8,946 nucleotides of DNA, taken from a virus (Duplodnaviria; Heunggongvirae; Uroviricota; Caudoviricetes). A program made the position numbers and the translations under genes. The notes below the pieces were generated by a model. It saw only the letters and a list, made by a program, of their open reading frames with translations. It made no database searches and had not been told where the DNA came from. The stretch lies in IMG/VR virus record IMGVR_UViG_2681813154_000005; one strand, written 5' to 3'. Shown here in pieces: positions 13-8,946 of the stretch (the stretch's first letter is position 1; each line of letters starts with the position of its first letter).

Positions 13-414
13 TTAATTCGTGTACGTGATCTGGTACGTGATTTCCGCCATCGCCCAGGTGGCCATCTCATTATCACGTTGATAGTTAAAACCGAGTGGG
101 ATCATGGTGTCGATGAGTCCGGAAAGCACCGGAATATCCTTCATGGCCGGAAATATGGTGTTCTCCATCCACGTATCCAGCTCAGAATCCGGCGCCTGTG
201 CACGGACGAAAACGGCAATATGCAGAACAGCCTGCCAGTCGTCCTCATCCGTCATTTTTCCGGTGTACTGCGCATCACTCAGCCACACCGCCACGGCGGG
301 CAGTTCCTGCGCATCAATAAATGCCGGAAGCCCGTCAAAAAACGTGGCGCTGTCTCCACACTGTTCCCGAAGGCGTGCCAGCACGCTCTGACGGATTTGT
401 GTGTGTCGGTTCAT
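13..414 (-). CDS. U: tail terminator protein (lambda gpU-like)
   Basis: 133-aa ORF MNRHTQIRQSVLARL...ATFFDG...PAVAV...YTG...DSELD.WME matches recalled lambda gpU in length (131 aa) and motifs. ATG at 414-412 overlaps the Z stop (TGA 413-411) as ATGA. Lambda gene order preserved. Confidence 0.88.
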   Translation of the reverse strand: MNRHTQIRQSVLARLREQCGDSATFFDGLPAFIDAQELPAVAVWLSDAQYTGKMTDEDDWQAVLHIAVFVRAQAPDSELDTWMENTIFPAMKDIPVLSGLIDTMIPLGFNYQRDNEMATWAMAEITYQITYTN

Positions 415-998
415 TTACTCAGATGTAACCTCAGTTGTTGTTTCAGGGCATACCCCAGCTGTTTCGGCATTTCCGCAGCAATGATGCGGTCGCGGGCATC
501 TTCAAATGCCTGTGTCAGCGGTCCGGACATCGGGATTTTCACCACATCAATGGGGTAACGATTTTTGCCGTCAATACGCCGCATCACATGCCAGCGACCA
601 TTCGCCAGTTGCTGAATAAACGCATCCCGGAAAAGGTATTTCCCCACTTTCAGTACGCTGCCACGATGACGTGAGTTGCTGCCATGCCGGGAGCGGGCCA
701 GTCTGACCTGTGCGGTACCCAGCTTAATGGCGGGCAGGTTACCCCGGTTAACACGCATGCGGGCATACATTTTTCCTGAGGGGCTGGCTTTAAGCAGCCT
801 GACACGCTCCCTGACCGTTTTCAGGGGAATACCTTTCACCTGGTTATCCCCGGCAACGGTATTCTGCGCAACCTGCCGTGTGGCGACAGAAACAATCTTT
901 GCCGCCACACGGTTTACCGCCCATGCGCTGGTCTGTGGCACCATGCGGGTATCGAGGCTGTTCAGATTGCGGATGGCATTCTCAAGTCCCTTCATCAT
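411..998 (-). CDS. Z: tail completion protein (lambda gpZ-like)
   Basis: 195-aa ORF MMKGLENAIRNLNSL...NGRWHVM.R..GKNRYPIDVVKIPM...LGYAL..QLR matches recalled lambda gpZ (192 aa). ATG ATG at 998-993 preceded by GAGG. Overlaps the FII 3' end by 17 nt. Confidence 0.88.
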   Translation of the reverse strand: MMKGLENAIRNLNSLDTRMVPQTSAWAVNRVAAKIVSVATRQVAQNTVAGDNQVKGIPLKTVRERVRLLKASPSGKMYARMRVNRGNLPAIKLGTAQVRLARSRHGSNSRHRGSVLKVGKYLFRDAFIQQLANGRWHVMRRIDGKNRYPIDVVKIPMSGPLTQAFEDARDRIIAAEMPKQLGYALKQQLRLHLSK

Positions 999-1359
999 AT
1001 CGCCTCATTCTGGCATTATTCTGTGGGGCAGGACTGCCCCGCCTTAACCGGATATAACAGCATCCCCCGTCATCCGGAGTAATACGATCCACAAAGAAAG
1101 AATCATCCCCGATAGTTAACGTATCCTGACGGCGTAACTGCGATATATCTGCCGTTTTCACAAACAGGCACGGTGAGGAATCCTCAAGCCGGATCCCCCC
1201 GGCAACAAAAGAAATACTTTCGGGATCATCAAAAACCCCTGTCAGGTGTGTCCCCTCAAGTTCTCCGGACGTAATGACGGCGCTGATCCCCATATCACGG
1301 AGAATGACTTCATTGACACCGGCAAGCGCAGCATCAAACAGATTATCGAAACCGTCCAC
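982..1359 (-). CDS. FII: head-tail joining / head completion protein (lambda gpFII-like)
   Basis: 125-aa ORF MDGFDNLFDAALAG...GVFDDPESIS...LRRQDTLTIGDD...PDDGG matches recalled lambda gpFII (MADFDNLFDAAIAR...). Start is GTG at 1359-1357, preceded by AGGAG with a 5-nt spacer. Confidence 0.85.
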   Translation of the reverse strand: MDGFDNLFDAALAGVNEVILRDMGISAVITSGELEGTHLTGVFDDPESISFVAGGIRLEDSSPCLFVKTADISQLRRQDTLTIGDDSFFVDRITPDDGGCCYIRLRRGSPAPQNNARMRRYDEGT

Positions 1360-1370
1360 GACATCTCCTG

Positions 1371-1757
1371 TTACTGCCTTTTTGCCAGACCACCTGCCGC
1401 CATGCTGGCAGCCACCTCAGCAGAAACACGAAACGACGTTCCCGGTGAAACAAATATCACTGAACCATTACATTTTGTATGCAGTGTCGCCAGTGCCACC
1501 ACCGTAACCTGCCCCGTTTCGTCTCCGGTAACAATGCCTGGCTGTTCAGGAACTGACTCGCCTTTATGCGCGGTCGGATCATCTTTCGATGGTGAGTACG
1601 TATCCGGCTCTGCGACCTCCCCCGCATCTCCAAGCTCTTCCTCCAGTTCCGCCACTCGCTGCGCAATATCTGCCGCACTACCGGAGACATCCGGTTCACG
1701 CCCCAGCCTCTCAGCCAGCTCACAAAGACGTTTCAGGTTTTCTTCTTTCGTAGCCAT
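1371..1757 (-). CDS. FI: DNA packaging protein (lambda gpFI-like)
   Basis: The ORF track gives 1371..1790, but from the internal ATG at 1757-1755 the protein (MATKEENLKRL...VTVVALATLHT...PGTSFRVSAEVAA) aligns with recalled lambda gpFI (MTKDELIARL..., 132 aa). AGGAG lies 7 nt upstream. The 1790 start would sit inside the intergenic hairpin. Confidence 0.8.
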   Translation of the reverse strand: MATKEENLKRLCELAERLGREPDVSGSAADIAQRVAELEEELGDAGEVAEPDTYSPSKDDPTAHKGESVPEQPGIVTGDETGQVTVVALATLHTKCNGSVIFVSPGTSFRVSAEVAASMAAGGLAKRQ

Positions 1758-1775
1758 ACCCGCTCCTGATTGAAT

Positions 1776-1803
1776 GAAAAACGGGAGCATTTAGCTCCCG
1801 CTC
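1776..1803 (-). terminator. terminator-like hairpin plus U-tract between major capsid gene E and FI (candidate partial terminator or mRNA 3' stabiliser)
   Basis: Minus-strand RNA after the E stop (TAA 1811-1809): CGGGAGC-UAAAU-GCUCCCG, a perfect 7-bp GC-rich stem (plus strand 1782-1788 and 1794-1800), extendable by A-U and G.U pairs, followed directly by UUUUU (plus strand A5 at 1777-1781). The FI RBS and start follow. Confidence 0.35.
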
Positions 1804-1808
1804 ACGGA

Positions 1809-2837
1809 TTATTTCACCTGCACCACCACAAACTCATCCGGATCCGGCAGCACCATCAGCGGCGCGGACTGCGTCATGGTGAATTCACGCGCCGGATCAC
1901 CCACGGTCAGCCAGTGTTTCGGATAACGGGAAGACGCCACCACGCCTTCAGACAATGCCTGCGCATCCTGAATGGCACCGTAGCAACGAATACCCTCTGC
2001 GGCCGTATTTCCCAGTACCAGTGTGCCGTCCGGCAGATAACGTTTTTCGGTACCGTCCTCTGCCACATAGGACGTTTTTGCCACCACGATTGCCAGATCA
2101 CCATAATACCCTTTGAAGGACACCACCGCCCCCAGGTCTTTCACTGCCGTTTCCAGCTGTGAATTTGAGCCACGACGGGTATCCAGTTTTTCGCGGAACA
2201 GCTTAAAGCCATTCAGCAGACGCCAGACCTTACCATCCATAATGGCAATATTGATGGTGCCGGAAGCAAAATCACAGTACGCATCCAGATCATGCGTCGG
2301 ATCAAAGGTATCGCGGTCCTGAGCGCTCCACTCCGTCCCTCCTGCCTGCGTAATGTTATTTCCCACCGACCGGCCAAAATCGACCTCAACAGTTTCAAAC
2401 TGCTCTCCTTCCATGGTGTATTTGCCATACAGCACGGCATTCACCGCCTGCATCTCTTCCACCTGGACAATGGCGTGCTCTTCCTGTTTGAGGTTATCGG
2501 TGATGATACGCAGGCGACGGTAAGCCGGGCCGTTCAGCTGGGCCGGATCTTCACCGGGAAGACGCTCCACCGCCTGCTGGTAATTAAATTCGTGTTTCGG
2601 CTTAACGTAGCCCGGGCGCAGTACACGAGTTTCACCGCCACGGTGACGCAACACCTTTCCTTCAACAACCGGGGAGACATAGGCCGCCACCGGCGTTTTT
2701 CCGGTAATTTTGTCCAGCATTACCTCTTCGGTATGGAAATTCACCGTACGGCGGAAAAACAGCTCCAGAAACAGCGCACGAAATTTAACTTTTTGTTCGG
2801 TATAACCGAGTAACTGGCGGGTCGTAAACAATCCCAT
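1809..2837 (-). CDS. E: major capsid protein (lambda gpE-like)
   Basis: 342-aa ORF (lambda gpE 341 aa) with long collinear matches to recalled gpE: PGYVKPKH, QVEEMQAV, GKYTM.GE.F, NNITQ.GGTEWS, KLDTRRGSNS.LETAVKDLG, TGDPAREFTM.QSAPLM, DPDEFV. ATG at 2837 preceded by AAGGAA. Confidence 0.95.
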   Translation of the reverse strand: MGLFTTRQLLGYTEQKVKFRALFLELFFRRTVNFHTEEVMLDKITGKTPVAAYVSPVVEGKVLRHRGGETRVLRPGYVKPKHEFNYQQAVERLPGEDPAQLNGPAYRRLRIITDNLKQEEHAIVQVEEMQAVNAVLYGKYTMEGEQFETVEVDFGRSVGNNITQAGGTEWSAQDRDTFDPTHDLDAYCDFASGTINIAIMDGKVWRLLNGFKLFREKLDTRRGSNSQLETAVKDLGAVVSFKGYYGDLAIVVAKTSYVAEDGTEKRYLPDGTLVLGNTAAEGIRCYGAIQDAQALSEGVVASSRYPKHWLTVGDPAREFTMTQSAPLMVLPDPDEFVVVQVK

Positions 2838-2894
2838 AAATCAGTTCCTTTCATTCAGAAATCAGTCAGGCTACCGCAGTGACCTGATAAAATG

Positions 2895-3242
2895 TTACGG
2901 CAGCGCTGCGTGACTCAGGGCACTGCCGGCAAAGGCATTCGCCTTTTTGTGTGTATCCACTCTCTCAGGCCAGTGGATGGCCTCCGTCGCAAAGGTCCCC
3001 GACTTGTAATACGTCAGCACCGTCTCTGTACCTTCAAGCGGCAGTACCAGTATGCCAACCACATGGCCTGCCTTCTGTCCGTCCCAGACCACCAGTTTCC
3101 CGGTATCCTCATCCAGCATCAGGGGCGTCAGAGCCGGTGTTGCCGAGGAAATCCCGCTGCAGCCTGTGGCGGTATGGGCCGGATCATTACCGGCAAAAAT
3201 ACGTACTTCCGCACGCTGTTCAGTGATGGTTTTCGTTACCAT
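2895..3242 (-). CDS. D: head decoration protein (lambda gpD-like)
   Basis: 115-aa ORF (lambda gpD 110 aa) with motifs DPAHTAT, TPLMLD, YKSGTF, AFAG matching recalled gpD. ATG at 3242 preceded by GAGG. Confidence 0.9.
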   Translation of the reverse strand: MVTKTITEQRAEVRIFAGNDPAHTATGCSGISSATPALTPLMLDEDTGKLVVWDGQKAGHVVGILVLPLEGTETVLTYYKSGTFATEAIHWPERVDTHKKANAFAGSALSHAALP

Positions 3243-3278
3243 ATTGTAAAAACCTCATATTGATGGTCAGCACTGACT

Positions 3279-3946
3279 TCATGGCATGGCCATGAGCATT
3301 TTCACGTCCGCATCACCGTCTGCTGACGTCTGTGGCACGCCACCCTGTACCGCTGCCGGTGAATGGTTCGCCATGNNNNNNNNNNNNNNNNNNNNNNNNN
3401 NNNNNNNNNNNNNNNNNNNNNNNNNNNNNNNNNNNNNNNNNNNNNNNNNNNNNNNNNNNNNNNNNNNNNNNNNNNNNNNNNNNNNNNNNNNNNNNNNNNN
3501 NNNNNNNNNNNNNNNNNNNNNNNNNNNNNNNNNNNNNNNNNNNNNNNNNNNNNNNNNNNNNNNNNNNNNNNNNNTTTTGCCTCATCCAGGGCCATAATCT
3601 GATCACGAAGTGAGGGTCCGGCATTCGCCTGCGGTGAAGCAGCCAGAATCGGACGGGCTTTTTCCACCGTCATCTCCGGCATCGCCGCCAGCGTTGCCGC
3701 CAGTTGTTCACGTCCTTTCGCCTCTTCACATGCCATAATGCGATCGGCTTCACTCTGCGCAGATACACCAGATTGTTGCGGTGCCGCCACGGCCAGAATC
3801 GCCCGGGCCTGCTCAACGCTCATACCCTGTTGCCCTGCCAGCATCGTGGCCAGTTGTTCACGTCCTTTCGCTTCCTGACACGTCAGGATCCCCATCACTC
3901 GCTGGTTCTCCTGCGCGGCAGCCTCCGTTGCAGTTAATTGCGGCAT
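3279..3946 (-). CDS. Nu3: candidate nested in-frame scaffolding protein (lambda Nu3-like), sharing the C terminus of C
   Basis: Internal ATG at 3946-3944 in the C frame, preceded by AGGAGG with a 4-nt spacer. The product begins MPQLTATEAAAQENQRVMGIL.C.EAKGRE, matching where lambda Nu3 starts within C (MTKETQ...SRIMGILNCEEAHGREEQ). Interrupted by the N-run. Confidence 0.45.
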
Positions 3947-4849
3947 AGTGCCTCCTGTATCGTGTGTGTTCAGCGTCGCAGCCATCACGCTGATGGCGTC
4001 CGACGCATTGATTAATTCATCCGCCAGTTCGGCCTCAATACCGGACTGACCTTCAAAAACGGCGGCCTCTGTTCCCATAACCGCATCCACAGATAAACCG
4101 GTATACATCGCCACTTTTTCAGCAAACATCCGGCGCGCCGCATCAATGCGCTGCTGCATGTCCTGGCGAACCTTTGCTGGCAGGGATTCAAACTGATTGC
4201 CATCCACCTTGTGCGATCCGGCGTAAATCAGCGTGATATCCACACCGGCCTGTGCCAGATGACCGGCATAGCTGACATGGCCCATCATCACCCCAATGGA
4301 GCCGATACGGGATGTCTGGGTAACCAGCCGTCGGGAGCAGGCCGATGCCAGTAACATGGCGGCTGAACAGGCCGTGTCATTGCACAGTGCCCAGACAGGC
4401 TTCAGCTGCCGGAGACGGTAAATCATGTCAGCGCAGTCAAACGCGCCGGTGGCCTGCCCGCCAGAACTGTCAATGTCCAGCAGTACGCCCCGTACCTGAG
4501 TGTCCGCCATTGCCTGCTGAAGACAGGCGACAATGCCGTCATAGCCAGTCATTCCGGAAAATGGCCGCATGCCACCCAGCCGGTGTACCAGCGTGCCGGT
4601 CACCGGCAGTACAGCAATACCGTTCACCACCCGGTAAACACGGGCAGGTCGTTTGCCTCCGGCCATGTACTCGTCCGTTTCAGCCAGCATCCCGGGAGCG
4701 TCAAGCTGTACCTGCTGTTGCGGTACCGAAAGGCTTGCTGCGCCCATCTCACGCCCGAGCGCGCAAAAGAAAACCCGCGCATAGGCGGGCTCCAGAAGCA
4801 GCGGCTCATTGAATGCCGCAGCGATAATATGTGAAAGATTACGTCTCAC
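3279..4849 (-). CDS. C: capsid assembly protease/scaffold protein (lambda gpC-like, S49/ClpP-like fold), interrupted by a 199-nt N-run
   Basis: The N-terminal 400+ aa (from GTG 4849) match recalled lambda gpC: AFNEPL.LEPAYARVFFCAL, NGIAVLPV.GTLV, SGMTGY.GI, GAFDCAD.I, KPVWAL.ND..CSA..LLASA.SRRLVTQT.R.GSIGVMM, ITLIY.GSHKVDGN. After the N-run the only protein-like frame ends ...AAVQGGVPQTSADGDADVKMLMAMP with stop at 3281-3279, resembling the lambda C terminus (AAGNPASDAVNDLLNTPV). That frame differs from the upstream frame, so the 3' end coordinate is inferred. Confidence 0.75.
3376..3574. other. run of 199 N (assembly gap or masked sequence) inside gene C/Nu3
   Basis: Directly visible. Abuts the third copy of the 150-bp tandem repeat. 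Confidence 1.
3575..3905. repeat. in-frame ~150-bp tandem repeat (at least 2.3 copies visible) within the Nu3/C scaffold region, continuing into the N-run
   Basis: cagttgttcacgtcctttcgc occurs at 3701-3721 and 3851-3871 (exact 150-bp spacing); ggccagaatc / agccagaatc at 3791 and 3641; gccataat at 3732 and 3591. The encoded units are RVMGILTCQEAKGREQLATMLAGQQGMSVEQARAILAVAAPQ, RIMACEEAKGREQLAATLAAMPEMTVEKARPILAASPQ and IMALDEAK..., the last cut by Ns. Confidence 0.8.
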
Positions 4850-6498
4850 GTGATGTTGTCTCCTCTTCCGGCCTGCGACTCTCCGCTATCTGCTGCTGAT
4901 ACGCCTGGGCTATCCACACCGGACGTGAGAGTCCGGCTTTTTCGCGCTCTGCGGATTCCCTGACCTGCTGGCGGAAAATGTCCTGATAATCTTCGCCCAT
5001 CAGTGCCAGTTCTTTCTCATACGTGCTCAGTCCGGCCTCAATGCGCATCACCGATTCCTGGACCTCCTTGAGCCCGTCAATGGCCATTCTTCCGGAGCTA
5101 ATCCACTCTGCCCGTGACCAGGCTGAACGCGCCTGGTAAAAATCAAAACGCGCCCGTGGCGGACGAATAATCCCCCGAAGAAGCGCCTCTTCCAGCCAGN
5201 NNNNNNNNNNNNNNNNNNNNNNNNNNNNNNNNNNNNNNNNNNNNNNNNNNNNNNNNNNNNNNNNNNNNNNNNNNATCTGCGTGGCCAGCCGGGCCGCAAT
5301 AAATTTTCGCCGCCCCATAAAATAGCGCCACGACTCATTGGCGGAGGCGCGGGCACTTGAGTAACTGACCTTCGAGTAATCACGGGACAACTGTTCGTAG
5401 GAAACGCCAAGACCGGCTGCAATATACCGCAGCAGCGCCTGTTCAAGCGCCGAAAATCCATTGTCTGAATCCTGCGCTGTCTGCAGGTTCAGCGCATCGC
5501 CAGGAAAAAAGGTGCGGAATTTTAACACCGCCCAGCGTCACGTTATTCGTGTCATACCAGCGGGTGAACTTCTCCAGAATATTAATAAGCGGATTATCCT
5601 GCTGACCTTGCGGTGCCCCCGCGATATATTCAAATGCCTTTTCGGTATCAAGTTCACTTTCGATTGTGGCTGCATACATCGCCTTCACAATGGCCGACTG
5701 AAGCTGCGTGGCCTGCAGGGAGTCCAGCATCTTCATCCGCTCCATTACGCTGTAAAACTGATTAGCCCCACGGGTCTGCCCGTCCTCCACCGGCTCAAAA
5801 ATATGCAGCATGGCCGGACGCCCGGTGGGAAGCTCACGCGGGATCCGCTCCCAGCGTCCGGCACCAGAGAACGGAAAATCATCCTCACAGATATGGTACG
5901 CAATCGCCCGCCCATACCGATCGACCTCAACCCCGGCCCGCAGAAAGTGGTTCCCCATACCGTGTCCTGGCGTGTCCACCCGTTTCGGACTCACGGCTTT
6001 AAAACGCGTACGGAATAACTGCGTGGTTTCCGTATCCCAGACCGGCTGCACAAAGATTTCGCCGTTAAAGGCATGCACGCCCACCCCTTCACGGATAAAT
6101 TCCGTAAACGTGCGTTTCCCTTCCACGTCGATCTCGCCAAACATTCCTTCTGCGTATTCCGACCAGGCTGCTTCCACCTCCCCGACAAAACTTTTTGCCG
6201 TGGTCTCCCGCATCCCCAGCCAACGCCAGTTCAGACGGTAGCTGATAAGAAACATGTGCCCGACGATATGATCCTTATGCAGGGCCACCGCATTAGCCGC
6301 GATACCGTTATTGCGCACCAGATCATCTGCCCGGGCATTCCCCAGACGCAATGCAGGCAACAGGGCCGCATCGGCACTCTGCGCCGGTGGTAACCACTCT
6401 GCCATTTGCCCGCCAAATCCTGCGCCGCCTCCGTTGTAGCTGAGACTCTCACGAAGCGGAACGCCGTTCACATCAATCAGGACAGGCGTTCGTTTCAT
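4839..6498 (-). pseudogene. B: portal protein (lambda gpB-like), split by a 1-nt frameshift in a homopolymer and containing a 75-nt N-run
   Basis: The N-terminal ORF 5443..6498 (NGGGAGFGGQ, GNARADDLVRNNG, HAFNGE.FVQ, FEPVEDGQTRGAN.FYSVME.MKMLD.LQ.TQLQSAIVKAMYAATIESELDT) and the C-terminal ORF 4839..5528 (PGDALNLQTAQD.DNG, LLRYIAAGLGVSYEQLSR, SGRMAIDGLKEVQE, IEAGLSTYEKE) together cover recalled lambda gpB (533 aa) but are in different frames. Removing one base from the A6 run at 5505-5510 (T6 on the coding strand) restores KIPHLFPGDALNLQ, as in lambda VPHLMPGDSLNLQ. ATG at 6498 overlaps the W stop as ATGA. Confidence 0.8.
5200..5274. other. run of 75 N (assembly gap or masked sequence) inside the portal gene
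   Basis: Directly visible. Confidence 1.
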
Positions 6499-6698
6499 AA
6501 CCTCACTCCCAGCGGTCGGCGGCGTCGGGTCGTACCCAGAACCGACTCCGCATCGTTGATCGCACGGTTAAGCTCATTCAGGGACGCTGCCGTATATTCG
6601 ATCCTGCGACCGTCTTTCTGTACCGACACAACCCGTTTACCGGTTAATAAATCAAGGCGCGCCTGACGCAGCGCCTGCAGTTCAGCGACTGTAACCAT
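6495..6698 (-). CDS. W: head-tail connector / head completion protein (lambda gpW-like)
   Basis: 67-aa ORF MVTVAELQALRQARLDLLTGKRVVSVQKDGRRIEYTAASL...RRRR matches recalled lambda gpW (68 aa; ...[24 protein letters not shown]...QRRR). ATG at 6698 follows the A stop directly; GGAGGAG lies upstream. Confidence 0.92.
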   Translation of the reverse strand: MVTVAELQALRQARLDLLTGKRVVSVQKDGRRIEYTAASLNELNRAINDAESVLGTTRRRRPLGVRL

Positions 6699-8609
6699 TC
6701 ACTCCTCCGGACAGCTTCGCTGCCAGTTCTTCAAGGGTCGGTTGTGCAGTTGCATCCTTGCGGGATGCAACTGCACAGCCAGATCAAGTTGCCAGCGTTG
6801 CACGGACACACGTAATGCCGCATAGGCATACACCAGGCAGTCCAGCGCTTCGTTACGCCGCTTTTTGTTATCCCACAACAGACGCATCTTTCCTTTTTCC
6901 CACTTTTCCACCAGTTCCTCCGCCACCAGTTGTTGTGCCTCTGTCTGCGAAAAAATCTCCGGATTATCAGGAAAGCGGATGGCATACGATGTGGCCTCAT
7001 TCACAGGGGTGGGATCGGCCTTCATTCGGGCATAGAGAATTTCTTTTGCGGTATCCGTCCCCACCTCACACAGATACACACCCCGCTGATTGCGGGTTTT
7101 CGGCATGGTGATCACCGGCTTGCCATAGACAGAGGCACCTTTTACCGGCAGTACCCGGAAAATACCGTGTTTTTTTGACCTCTGATACACGATTTCGCCA
7201 TCGATCCCCCCGATATCCCAGCAGACACGGGAAATGGTCATTTCGGTACCGTCTGCATGGCGGTATTTTTTATTGATCGCCGCATCCACACGTAACAGCG
7301 TCTCTTCCTCATCAGGACGTCCCATGATGATGATTTTATCCACCAGAAAGGCTTCCTCTCCCGGAGCCCACCCCCAGACATACATCTCAAAACGGTTTCG
7401 CTGCGAGTCAATGCCCGCCGTCAGATAAACCACCCGGACAGGCACCGTTGCCGTGTAAGGCACAACCTTATCCATCAGTACCTGGTGATCGAGTTTTTCG
7501 CCCACGGCCTCTTCCCAGGTCTCGCCCAGCGTGGTGTTCACAAAAGTTTTCACGCCGTTGGGATCTTTCAGTGCATCCAGCCAGTCACAGACTATCTGTA
7601 CCCTGGTGGTGAACGGACTGTACGCCGTCCATATATGGAAAGTGATGGAGCGCGGCGGCGGAATTTCATTACCCGAAGCACTGAAAAACGTCAGACCGTC
7701 ACACGTCCACATCCCGGTATTGTCACAAATCCAGCGCCCCCCGGTCTGATCAAGTTCAGACTGACGGATCACGCAGCCATTATGTTCACACAGGTAATAC
7801 ACCGTTTCCGGTTTACCCTTCTCCCATTTCAGGCCAAACGACGTCGCATCATCGCCAAACTTCAGATACTGCTCCTCCCCGCAATGAGGGCAAGGGACAT
7901 AAAACCGCATGAAATGCGCAGATTCATTCGCAGCTTTTTCAATCTGACAGGAGCCTTTAATTTTTGGCGTTGAACCGCGTATGGATTTTGGCCATACCGA
8001 ACCTTCAATACGTTTATCGCCAAGCAGTGTTGGCGAACCTTCTTTTTCCACATCCGGTTCAAACGAGGAGAGTTCGTCATAGCAGACCACATCGACAGAT
8101 TTTTCACGGTAGTTTTTGGCAGCAGCACCACCCAAACACCAGAACCCCACACCAGAGGAAAAACGCTTCAGTGTGAGCGTATTATCCCGGTGTTTCCGGC
8201 CCAGCCAGGGAGAAAGTTTTTTCAGGCAAGGAACATCACGAATTGTTGCTTCCACGTGAGACTTCATAAAATCTTCAGCAGCTGAGTCCGTCGGCTGAAA
8301 AAGAAGAGTGTTGCGGGATTTGTGCTCAATAAAATACCCGATCACACCAAGCACCATTTTTGTATAACCAACACGGGCAGATTTAATCAGGTTAACTGTA
8401 CGAATCTCGTCATTGCCCATGCAGTTCATGATGGCGACCTGAAACTGCAGCGTTTTCCATTCCCCCTCACCGTATGACGATTCTTTAGGCAGGTAATAAT
8501 TTTGATCGGCCCATTCTACAGCCGTCACCGGCAATACCCTGACCAGTGGCTGCAGTGCGATAGTGACTGCCACCATCATATTACTCAGTTGTTGTTCTGA
8601 TATATTCAT
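6699..8609 (-). CDS. A: terminase large subunit (lambda gpA-like)
   Basis: From ATG 8609 the product (MNISEQQL...TAVEWAD.NYYLPKES, 636 aa) is collinear with recalled lambda gpA (641 aa, MNISNSQV...) along its whole length: KSARVGY.KM.LGV, DNTLT.KRF, GFWCLGG.AAKNYREKSVDV, GSPT.LGDKRIEGSVWPKSIRGSTPK, CPHCGEEQYLKFGD, FHIWTAYSPFTT, TFVNTTLGETWE, YLTAGIDSQ, SKKHG.FRV.P.KGASVYGKP, WD.KKRRNEALDC. The track's 8666 start is a 19-codon extension inside the Nu1 overlap. Confidence 0.95.
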   Translation of the reverse strand: MNISEQQLSNMMVAVTIALQPLVRVLPVTAVEWADQNYYLPKESSYGEGEWKTLQFQVAIMNCMGNDEIRTVNLIKSARVGYTKMVLGVIGYFIEHKSRNTLLFQPTDSAAEDFMKSHVEATIRDVPCLKKLSPWLGRKHRDNTLTLKRFSSGVGFWCLGGAAAKNYREKSVDVVCYDELSSFEPDVEKEGSPTLLGDKRIEGSVWPKSIRGSTPKIKGSCQIEKAANESAHFMRFYVPCPHCGEEQYLKFGDDATSFGLKWEKGKPETVYYLCEHNGCVIRQSELDQTGGRWICDNTGMWTCDGLTFFSASGNEIPPPRSITFHIWTAYSPFTTRVQIVCDWLDALKDPNGVKTFVNTTLGETWEEAVGEKLDHQVLMDKVVPYTATVPVRVVYLTAGIDSQRNRFEMYVWGWAPGEEAFLVDKIIIMGRPDEEETLLRVDAAINKKYRHADGTEMTISRVCWDIGGIDGEIVYQRSKKHGIFRVLPVKGASVYGKPVITMPKTRNQRGVYLCEVGTDTAKEILYARMKADPTPVNEATSYAIRFPDNPEIFSQTEAQQLVAEELVEKWEKGKMRLLWDNKKRRNEALDCLVYAYAALRVSVQRWQLDLAVQLHPARMQLHNRPLKNWQRSCPEE

Positions 8610-8904
8610 CGAGTAAATCCGGTAATTTATCCCCCGCACGCGCGCACTGATTCGCTCCCTTAGCAATAAGGATTTTCAGATGATCAATATGACGCGGCGT
8701 TAAATCCGGGAACTGTCGTTGCATGGACAAAGGAATGGAGTCAAGCGTACTGGATAAAGCCATCGCCAGCTTACTAAGGGCAAAAATACAAAATCCGGTA
8801 TCGATAAGATTTCCTTTTGACACCTGATTTTTTAACTGCTGTGCGACAGCCTGTTCTGCGGTCAGTTCCCATCTGGCAATGAGTAGTTTGAGGTGTACTG
8901 GCAA
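8581..8904 (-). pseudogene. Nu1: terminase small subunit (lambda Nu1-like), C-terminal fragment lacking the N-terminal DNA-binding domain
   Basis: The ORF matches only roughly the C-terminal 100 aa of recalled lambda Nu1 (181 aa): ELTAEQAVAQQLKN...FCIFALSKLA...LDSIPLSMQRQFPDL..RHIDHLK...LLDEYI versus RLTRAQADAQELKN...FCTFVLSRIA...LDGLPLSVQRRFPEL.NRHVDFLK...LLSEYI. An in-frame TAG at 8916-8914 lies just upstream; there is no ATG, and the frame opens with TTG. Its 3' end overlaps the A start, as in lambda. Confidence 0.7.
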
Positions 8905-8946
8905 TAGCGGACACTACCATTTGTTCTTTTTTTAAGCAGCCATCTG
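8889..8946 (+). mobile_element. candidate left terminal inverted repeat of an IS3-family insertion sequence (element body lies beyond the window)
   Basis: Plus strand 8889 onward reads TGAGGTGTACTGGCAATAGCGGACACTACC.... This resembles, from memory, IS3-group ends that begin 5'-TGA and contain GCAATAGTGGACAC (IS3) or TGAGGT...GGACAC (IS600). Nu1 homology stops at about this point. Recollection only; not verified. Confidence 0.3.

Follow-up and report, generated by a model that had tools for sequence, protein, structure and literature searches.

How did a lambdoid prophage of Shigella flexneri come to hold only the C-terminal part of its small terminase subunit Nu1, and can such a prophage still package DNA? 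On its minus strand, the stretch of DNA analysed here (8,946 nucleotides, hereafter the window) carries the head and packaging genes of a lambdoid prophage and reaches, at the left, the first tail genes (gpU type, tail tube). Annotations of a chimeric ORF, described below, give S. flexneri as the source organism. The head genes also comprise an S49 protease, a decoration protein and the major capsid protein; among isolated phages, coliphages of the PhiR12 and phage 21 types come nearest to them (∼89% identity). The features on which the analysis turns are the following.

4839–6498, minus strand: portal pseudogene, with a +1 insertion at 5505 and a run of N inside (5200–5274)
6495–6698, minus strand: gpW
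6699–8609, minus strand: terminase large subunit (TerL; GpA_ATPase and GpA_nuclease domains), with a -1 frameshift at 6773
8581–8888, minus strand: Nu1', the 3' remnant of the small terminase subunit gene (residues 68/69–169 of 169 and the stop codon)
8581–8904, minus strand: chimeric 107-aa ORF (TTG start and first five codons in the IS600 right repeat, fused to Nu1 68–169)
8886–8888: 3-bp target-site duplication on the right-inverted-repeat side, GTT (AAC on the Nu1 sense strand)
8889–8946, minus strand: IS600 right end (nt 1264 back to 1207 of 1264 bp), 100% identical to annotated copies

The window contains two runs of N, at 3376–3574 (199 bases, in the S49 protease gene) and at 5200–5274 (75 bases, in the portal gene). 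In genomes otherwise identical to the window, 134 and 9 ordinary bases occupy the corresponding positions, so the runs look like scaffolding gaps or masking in which length has not been preserved. The left end of the window was considered as a second IS boundary, a reading we reject: positions 1–700 match the tail genes of intact prophages throughout.

The Nu1 remnant and the IS600 end

Nu1' matches the Pfam family Phage_Nu1 (PF07471) from profile position 86 to 163 of 164 (E = 5e-19, 68.9 bits with a cut-off of 30). Its 102 residues are 100% identical to residues 68–169 of an intact 169-aa homologue in a prophage of E. coli FDAARGOS_943 (locus L001), a locus that is 100% identical to the window over 8500–8889 and diverges completely beyond. 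A preliminary description, made from the sequence alone, had proposed that only the C-terminal part of Nu1 is present, that the frame is closed by a TAG at 8916–8914, that the 30 nt past it hold no Nu1-like coding, and that homology fades at about 8880–8890 beside a repeat resembling the ends of IS3-group elements. All of this is borne out. The minus-strand Nu1 frame runs ...KW, stop, CPLLPVHLKLLIARWELTAEQ..., the stop being the TAG at 8916–8914, and we found no Nu1 coding in any frame between 8889 and the end of the window. The stretch past the TAG contains instead the end of IS600 orfB (QMAA at 8946–8935, stop codon TAA at 8934–8932, minus strand). The breakpoint can be read directly and is exact, 8888/8889, with the T at 8889 being the terminal base of IS600.

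The 58 terminal nt of the window comprise the right inverted repeat of IS600, an IS3-family element, together with the final orfB codons and stop. The outer 26 nt of the repeat (8889–8914, plus strand) read TGAGGTGTACTGGCAATAGCGGACAC, and the transposase has the same orientation as Nu1. Positions 8881–8946 match annotated IS600 in 2772 of 5426 complete E. coli genomes (97–100% identity), which at E values of ∼1e-22 to 1e-25 is far beyond chance. The matching copies are annotated as 'IS3-like element IS600 family transposase', with the RefSeq remark 'programmed frameshift'. At this locus the full-length element is 1264 bp long and has the ends TGAGGT...ACCTCA. The window holds the last four orfB codons only, and the two-ORF arrangement and slippery motif were examined in L010, a relative with 0 mismatches to the window, whose IS600 copy shares 99.5% identity over 1264 nt with annotated IS600. 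There, orfA spans nt 65–367 (frame 2) and orfB nt 403–1221 (frame 1, the -1 frame), ending in ...YHQMAA and a stop; the -1 frameshift motif that the preliminary description had suggested looking for is the A7G slippery sequence AAAAAAAG at IS600 nt 316. The products contain the Pfam domains HTH_Tnp_1 and rve, the latter being that of a DDE transposase. The left inverted repeat (TGAGGTAGCCTGAGTTTAACGGACAC) and the reverse complement of the right one (TGAGGTGTACTGGCAATAGCGGACAC) agree at 19 of the 26 outer positions, and the element has the 5'-TG ... CA-3' termini and imperfect repeats of the IS3 family. Other IS600 copies are flanked by a 3-bp duplication, GTC. An unrelated IS600 beside a KilA-N gene in E. 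coli CFSAN004176 (L003 2490–2515) has AGTAGTT outside its right repeat, as does the window, and this common heptamer could reflect either chance or a target preference.

At least 12 chromosome loci of Shigella contain the Nu1'-IS600 junction. Two genomes that have been finished, those of S. flexneri SFBU1023 and 'E. coli' ECMA0423, have its 46 nt exactly, it is base-identical in five further Shigella chromosome loci whose junction text was inspected, and all ten chromosomal loci L009–L018 align with the window across CACCTCA/AACTACTCATT. Because the same bases recur in many independently finished chromosomes, we regard the junction as real. A search of 5426 complete E. coli RefSeq genomes with window positions 8500–8946 returned no instance of it, the best matches stopping at query position 390. 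The junction is specific to Shigella.

In lambda, the N-terminal residues of Nu1 form a winged-helix domain that binds cosB. The 67 residues missing from Nu1' match, in intact relatives, positions 12–86 of phrog_57, and residues 1–66 of lambda Nu1 match positions 11–75 of the same profile. BLASTP of the intact homologue's N-terminal 67 residues detected no similarity to the lambda Nu1 DNA-binding domain, a Pfam search with these residues returned no Nu1 domain (and a marginal Sigma70_r3 at E = 0.046), and a PDB sequence search with the N-terminal domain gave no match. By the shared PHROG profile and by analogy, the missing 67 residues are probably the counterpart of the lambda DNA-binding domain. 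The gene in the window is a fragment of a Nu1 family member without its N-terminal, putatively DNA-binding half, and because this domain is absent from the window we consider Nu1' a non-functional fragment of the family. The intact 169-aa protein matches two additional profiles, phrog_7289 ('unknown function', 91 positions) with residues 2–90 and phrog_1790 ('terminase small subunit', 114 positions) with residues 56–169; the two look as if they had been built from N- and C-terminal pieces of split small-terminase genes.

The far side of IS600 in related loci

Complete genomes show what lies on the other side of the element, and three states can be observed directly. In state (i), represented by L015 (S. 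flexneri 5 strain 8401, CP000266.1; accession confirmed in PMC1550401) and L016, IS600 is a simple insertion with AAC on both sides. Both loci read through Nu1 codons 1–67 into the IS600 left repeat (...GAAGAGAAAC/TGAGGTAGCC). The intact target site is GAAGAGAAACTACTC, and L015 and L016 read ...GAGAAAC, IS600, AACTACTC.... A lambda-like cos is located ∼200 nt upstream of the Nu1 start in both; it was identified from collinear stretches matching lambda cosQ and cosN, TTTCaCTATTTATGAAAATTTT among them. Its core, CTATTTATGAAAATTTT, is present in L001, L002, L007, L015 and L016 and absent from the window, L004, L005, L009–L014, L017 and L018. L015 and L016 thus combine everything that had been named beforehand as a sign of an IS interrupting Nu1: they have a transposase, a matching inverted repeat at the other end of the element (here the left one), a duplication of 3 bp (AAC) and, on the far side, the 5' part of Nu1 with cos. 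Strain 8401 has in addition an inverted IS600 between Rz and Nu1 (duplication GTC), and L016 contains another extra copy.

State (ii) comprises L009–L014, L018 and L004/L005, in which Rz breaks off after residue 133 and the left end of IS600 follows. The junction, CGGGACGG-G-TGAGGTAGCC, is seen in L009–L014, L018 and L005, and L004 is 100% identical to L005 there. In the Rz flank these loci do not differ from L015 (100% identity), and Nu1 5' sequence is absent from them. The deletion removed the 5' part of Nu1, cos, all genes from there to Rz, and the 3'-terminal 22 codons of Rz itself. Measured against strain 8401 it covers coordinates ∼222–3439 (∼3.2 kb with the second, inverted IS600, ∼1.95 kb without), and against E. 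coli prophages 1.2–3.0 kb, varying with the accessory genes between Rz and cos. IS600 is flanked by GGG and AAC in state (ii); it lacks a target duplication in the window's lineage because the left flank has been deleted. Beyond IS600 the relatives' loci continue with lysis genes, Q, NinH and a DnaB-type helicase, so that the breakpoint is not the edge of a prophage remnant, as had been suggested.

Two other readings of these loci were rejected. IS600 in L004/L005 is not a simple insertion: its flanks, GTT and CCC, form no duplication, a mismatch that leads to the deletion model. The far flank is only 90–93% identical to E. coli prophages, which raised the idea that the two flanks derive from different prophages; we discard it because Rz of the same prophage in strain 8401 matches that flank at 100% identity. 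In E. coli RMDEC364 both flanks are collinear and 2.5 kb apart, which also speaks against this idea.

State (iii) is represented by L017 (GCA_900457225.1), which has a different left-side deletion, ending at the 5-nt tip of the inverted second IS600 (3430–3460: ...GGGTC, TGAGG, TGAGGTAGCC). This second copy is intact in strain 8401, with its GTC duplication. The L017 junction looks like an independent deletion targeted to the inverted-repeat tip and could be the natural footprint of intramolecular transposition into an inverted repeat.

Some further details of the element and its left junction were recorded. A single G precedes the IS600 left repeat at L010 4752 and at all state (ii) equivalents, where native Rz has an A (CGGGACGGAATC compared with native Rz, CGGGACGGG followed by TGAGG); this base may represent either a substitution or filler at the deletion junction. 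An IS629-like element with the ends TGAACCGCCCCGGG has inserted into the Nu1 copy of IS600 on two independent occasions. One insertion is at IS600 nt ∼371 (duplication TTG; ECMA0423 and SFBU1023; L005 1935–3226, L014 ∼3830–5120), the other, in opposite orientation, at nt ∼181–184 (duplication CAC; strain 8401 group; L015 3624–4932). A nested IS629-like element is found within IS600 in L004, L005 and L014.

We propose that IS600 inserted into Nu1 and that a later one-sided deletion and frameshifts left the prophage decaying and packaging-dead, a history we hold to be very probable. The first step is seen directly in state (i): IS600 entered a lambda/phage-21-like prophage of an S. flexneri ancestor at codon 68 of its Nu1-type gene, duplicating AAC and splitting Nu1 into a 5' fragment with the N-terminal domain and the 3' fragment seen in the window. 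The second step, a deletion on the left-repeat side of the same IS600 that left the right-hand junction untouched, is likewise visible as an event in state (ii); it would have come about either by transposase-mediated adjacent deletion or by recombination with a direct IS600 copy since lost. Both routes are recognised reasons for IS copies without target duplications (PMC11708052, PMC7373316).

RecA-dependent recombination between the IS600 in Nu1 and a direct copy that once stood in Rz is a possible second route, and to us the less probable one. Homologous IS copies are a recognised cause of deletions in Shigella (PMC7373316) and their recombination a recognised source of IS copies without target duplications (PMC11708052); moreover, the region has gained extra IS600 copies, the inverted one in L015 and another in L016. 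However, none of the retrieved genomes has an IS600 at that position of Rz, and the sole extra copy between Rz and Nu1 is inverted, from which an inversion rather than a deletion would be expected. Both mechanisms give identical products, between which the sequence cannot discriminate, and neither predicts the G in place of A at the junction.

Terminase and portal lesions and the state of the window

Additional lesions can be seen directly in the packaging genes. The TerL lesion at 6769–6773 consists of three clustered substitutions and a -1 deletion near the 3' end of the gene. The frameshift at 6773 replaces the last 30 residues by 24 out-of-frame ones, giving a protein of 636 instead of 642 aa; it is found in the window's lineage and is absent from strain 8401. 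The C-terminal tail of lambda gpA is the part that binds the prohead. Compared with the intact L001 gene, the portal gene contains a +1 insertion that yields two overlapping ORFs (5443–6498, 351 aa, and 4839–5528). This insertion, at 5505, is common to all S. flexneri loci examined, including strain 8401. In L004/L005, TerL differs from the window and L001 by a -1 and a +1 indel 128 nt apart (window 7884 and 8012), which may be either true mutations or homopolymer errors of long-read sequencing; accordingly, the annotation of L014 splits TerL in two.

The window stops 58 nt into IS600, and we infer its far side from identical genomes. Over 6223 nt it shows 0 mismatches and 0 indels compared with L010, L012 and L018, all of state (ii). 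Because of this identity and the common TerL frameshift we are confident in assigning the window to state (ii), in which the 5' part of Nu1 and cos would be gone. Were the window genome to carry only the 8401-type simple insertion, the 5' part of Nu1 and cos would still follow beyond the IS, and the prophage DNA could be packaged with terminase supplied in trans. That arrangement does occur in nature (L015, L016), and the window does not reach the far side of IS600, yet we judge it improbable here: three deleted-state genomes are identical to the window over 6223 nt, 12–14 mismatches and one indel, that in TerL, separate it from L015–L017, the three genomes without the state (ii) deletion, and all seven inspected loci with the window's type of TerL frameshift have the Rz'-IS600 junction. 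The portal frameshift is common to both states in any case.

A prophage of the window type, assigned in this way to state (ii), should be unable to cut or package its own DNA, even when helper functions are provided, because it would have no cos, no DNA-binding half of Nu1, a frameshifted TerL C terminus and a frameshifted portal gene. The preliminary description had considered it packaging-defective unless complemented. The defect stands; the proviso falls, as cos acts in cis and is deleted in the state inferred for the window, so that the defect would not be rescued in trans.

The chimeric 107-aa ORF was found on 343 public contigs by exact-protein look-up and is named, for example, 'terminase small subunit [Shigella flexneri]'; shorter 'partial' versions occur on more than 1000 contigs, many of them stopping at contig ends. 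In lambda, the C-terminal half of Nu1 carries the gpA-binding region. A read-through product of IS600 transposase expression might act as a DNA-binding-deficient decoy for the large terminase of superinfecting phages, and would then represent a packaging-interference defence against phage-21/lambda-like phages that has been retained in S. flexneri. We regard this as very unlikely. An outward promoter driving Nu1' has no sequence support, because a promoter and terminator scan of 8400–8946 found nothing. Least probable is that Nu1 is intact and its truncation an assembly artefact (a contig mis-joined or broken at a repeat, or a TAG arising from a sequencing error): the window does contain two N runs and end inside a multi-copy repeat, and many public partial versions of the protein stop at contig ends, but the junction recurs base for base in many independently finished chromosomes and the sequence past the break is not Nu1 in any frame and is 100% identical to IS600.

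Comparison with known prophages and implications

IS600 itself does not differ from known copies (58 nt at 100% identity in the window). The gene order R-Rz ... cos - Nu1 - A - W - B - C is that of lambda, the C-terminal half of Nu1 shares 45% identity with lambda residues 86–180, TerL likewise contains GpA_ATPase and GpA_nuclease domains, and the intact relatives of the window also have cosQ/cosN-like sequence ∼200 nt upstream of Nu1. By contrast, neither BLASTP nor Pfam recognises a similarity between the intact homologue and lambda Nu1 in the N-terminal domain, this domain is missing from the window, and cos is missing from the window and its lineage. Other grounded lambdoid prophages, such as the IS-rearranged S. 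dysenteriae stx prophage and DLP12, Rac and Qin of E. coli K-12, are of the same kind, and fixation of a lambdoid prophage by IS insertion, followed by deletion and frameshifts, has been described (PMC6379469, PMC7373316). In comparison with these, the lesions described here are in the packaging module (Nu1, cos, TerL, portal), the loci read leaving out integrase and excision functions, and the ancestral and derived states of the same insertion can both be observed in S. flexneri lineages.

There is nothing new in kind in these findings: the element, the gene fragment and the process were already known, and the fragment is already in public annotation. Annotations should call Nu1' a pseudogene fragment instead of 'terminase small subunit', and to prophage-prediction tools the head module will look nearly complete although it is unable to package. 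IS600, an IS3-group element that has multiplied in every Shigella species, is one of five IS that have expanded in Shigella (PMC7373316), and the locus is an example of how this expansion has grounded S. flexneri prophages, with little weight beyond correct annotation. The 8401-type and derived junctions, which occur in different lineages, provide a phylogenetic marker of stepwise, IS-mediated prophage decay.
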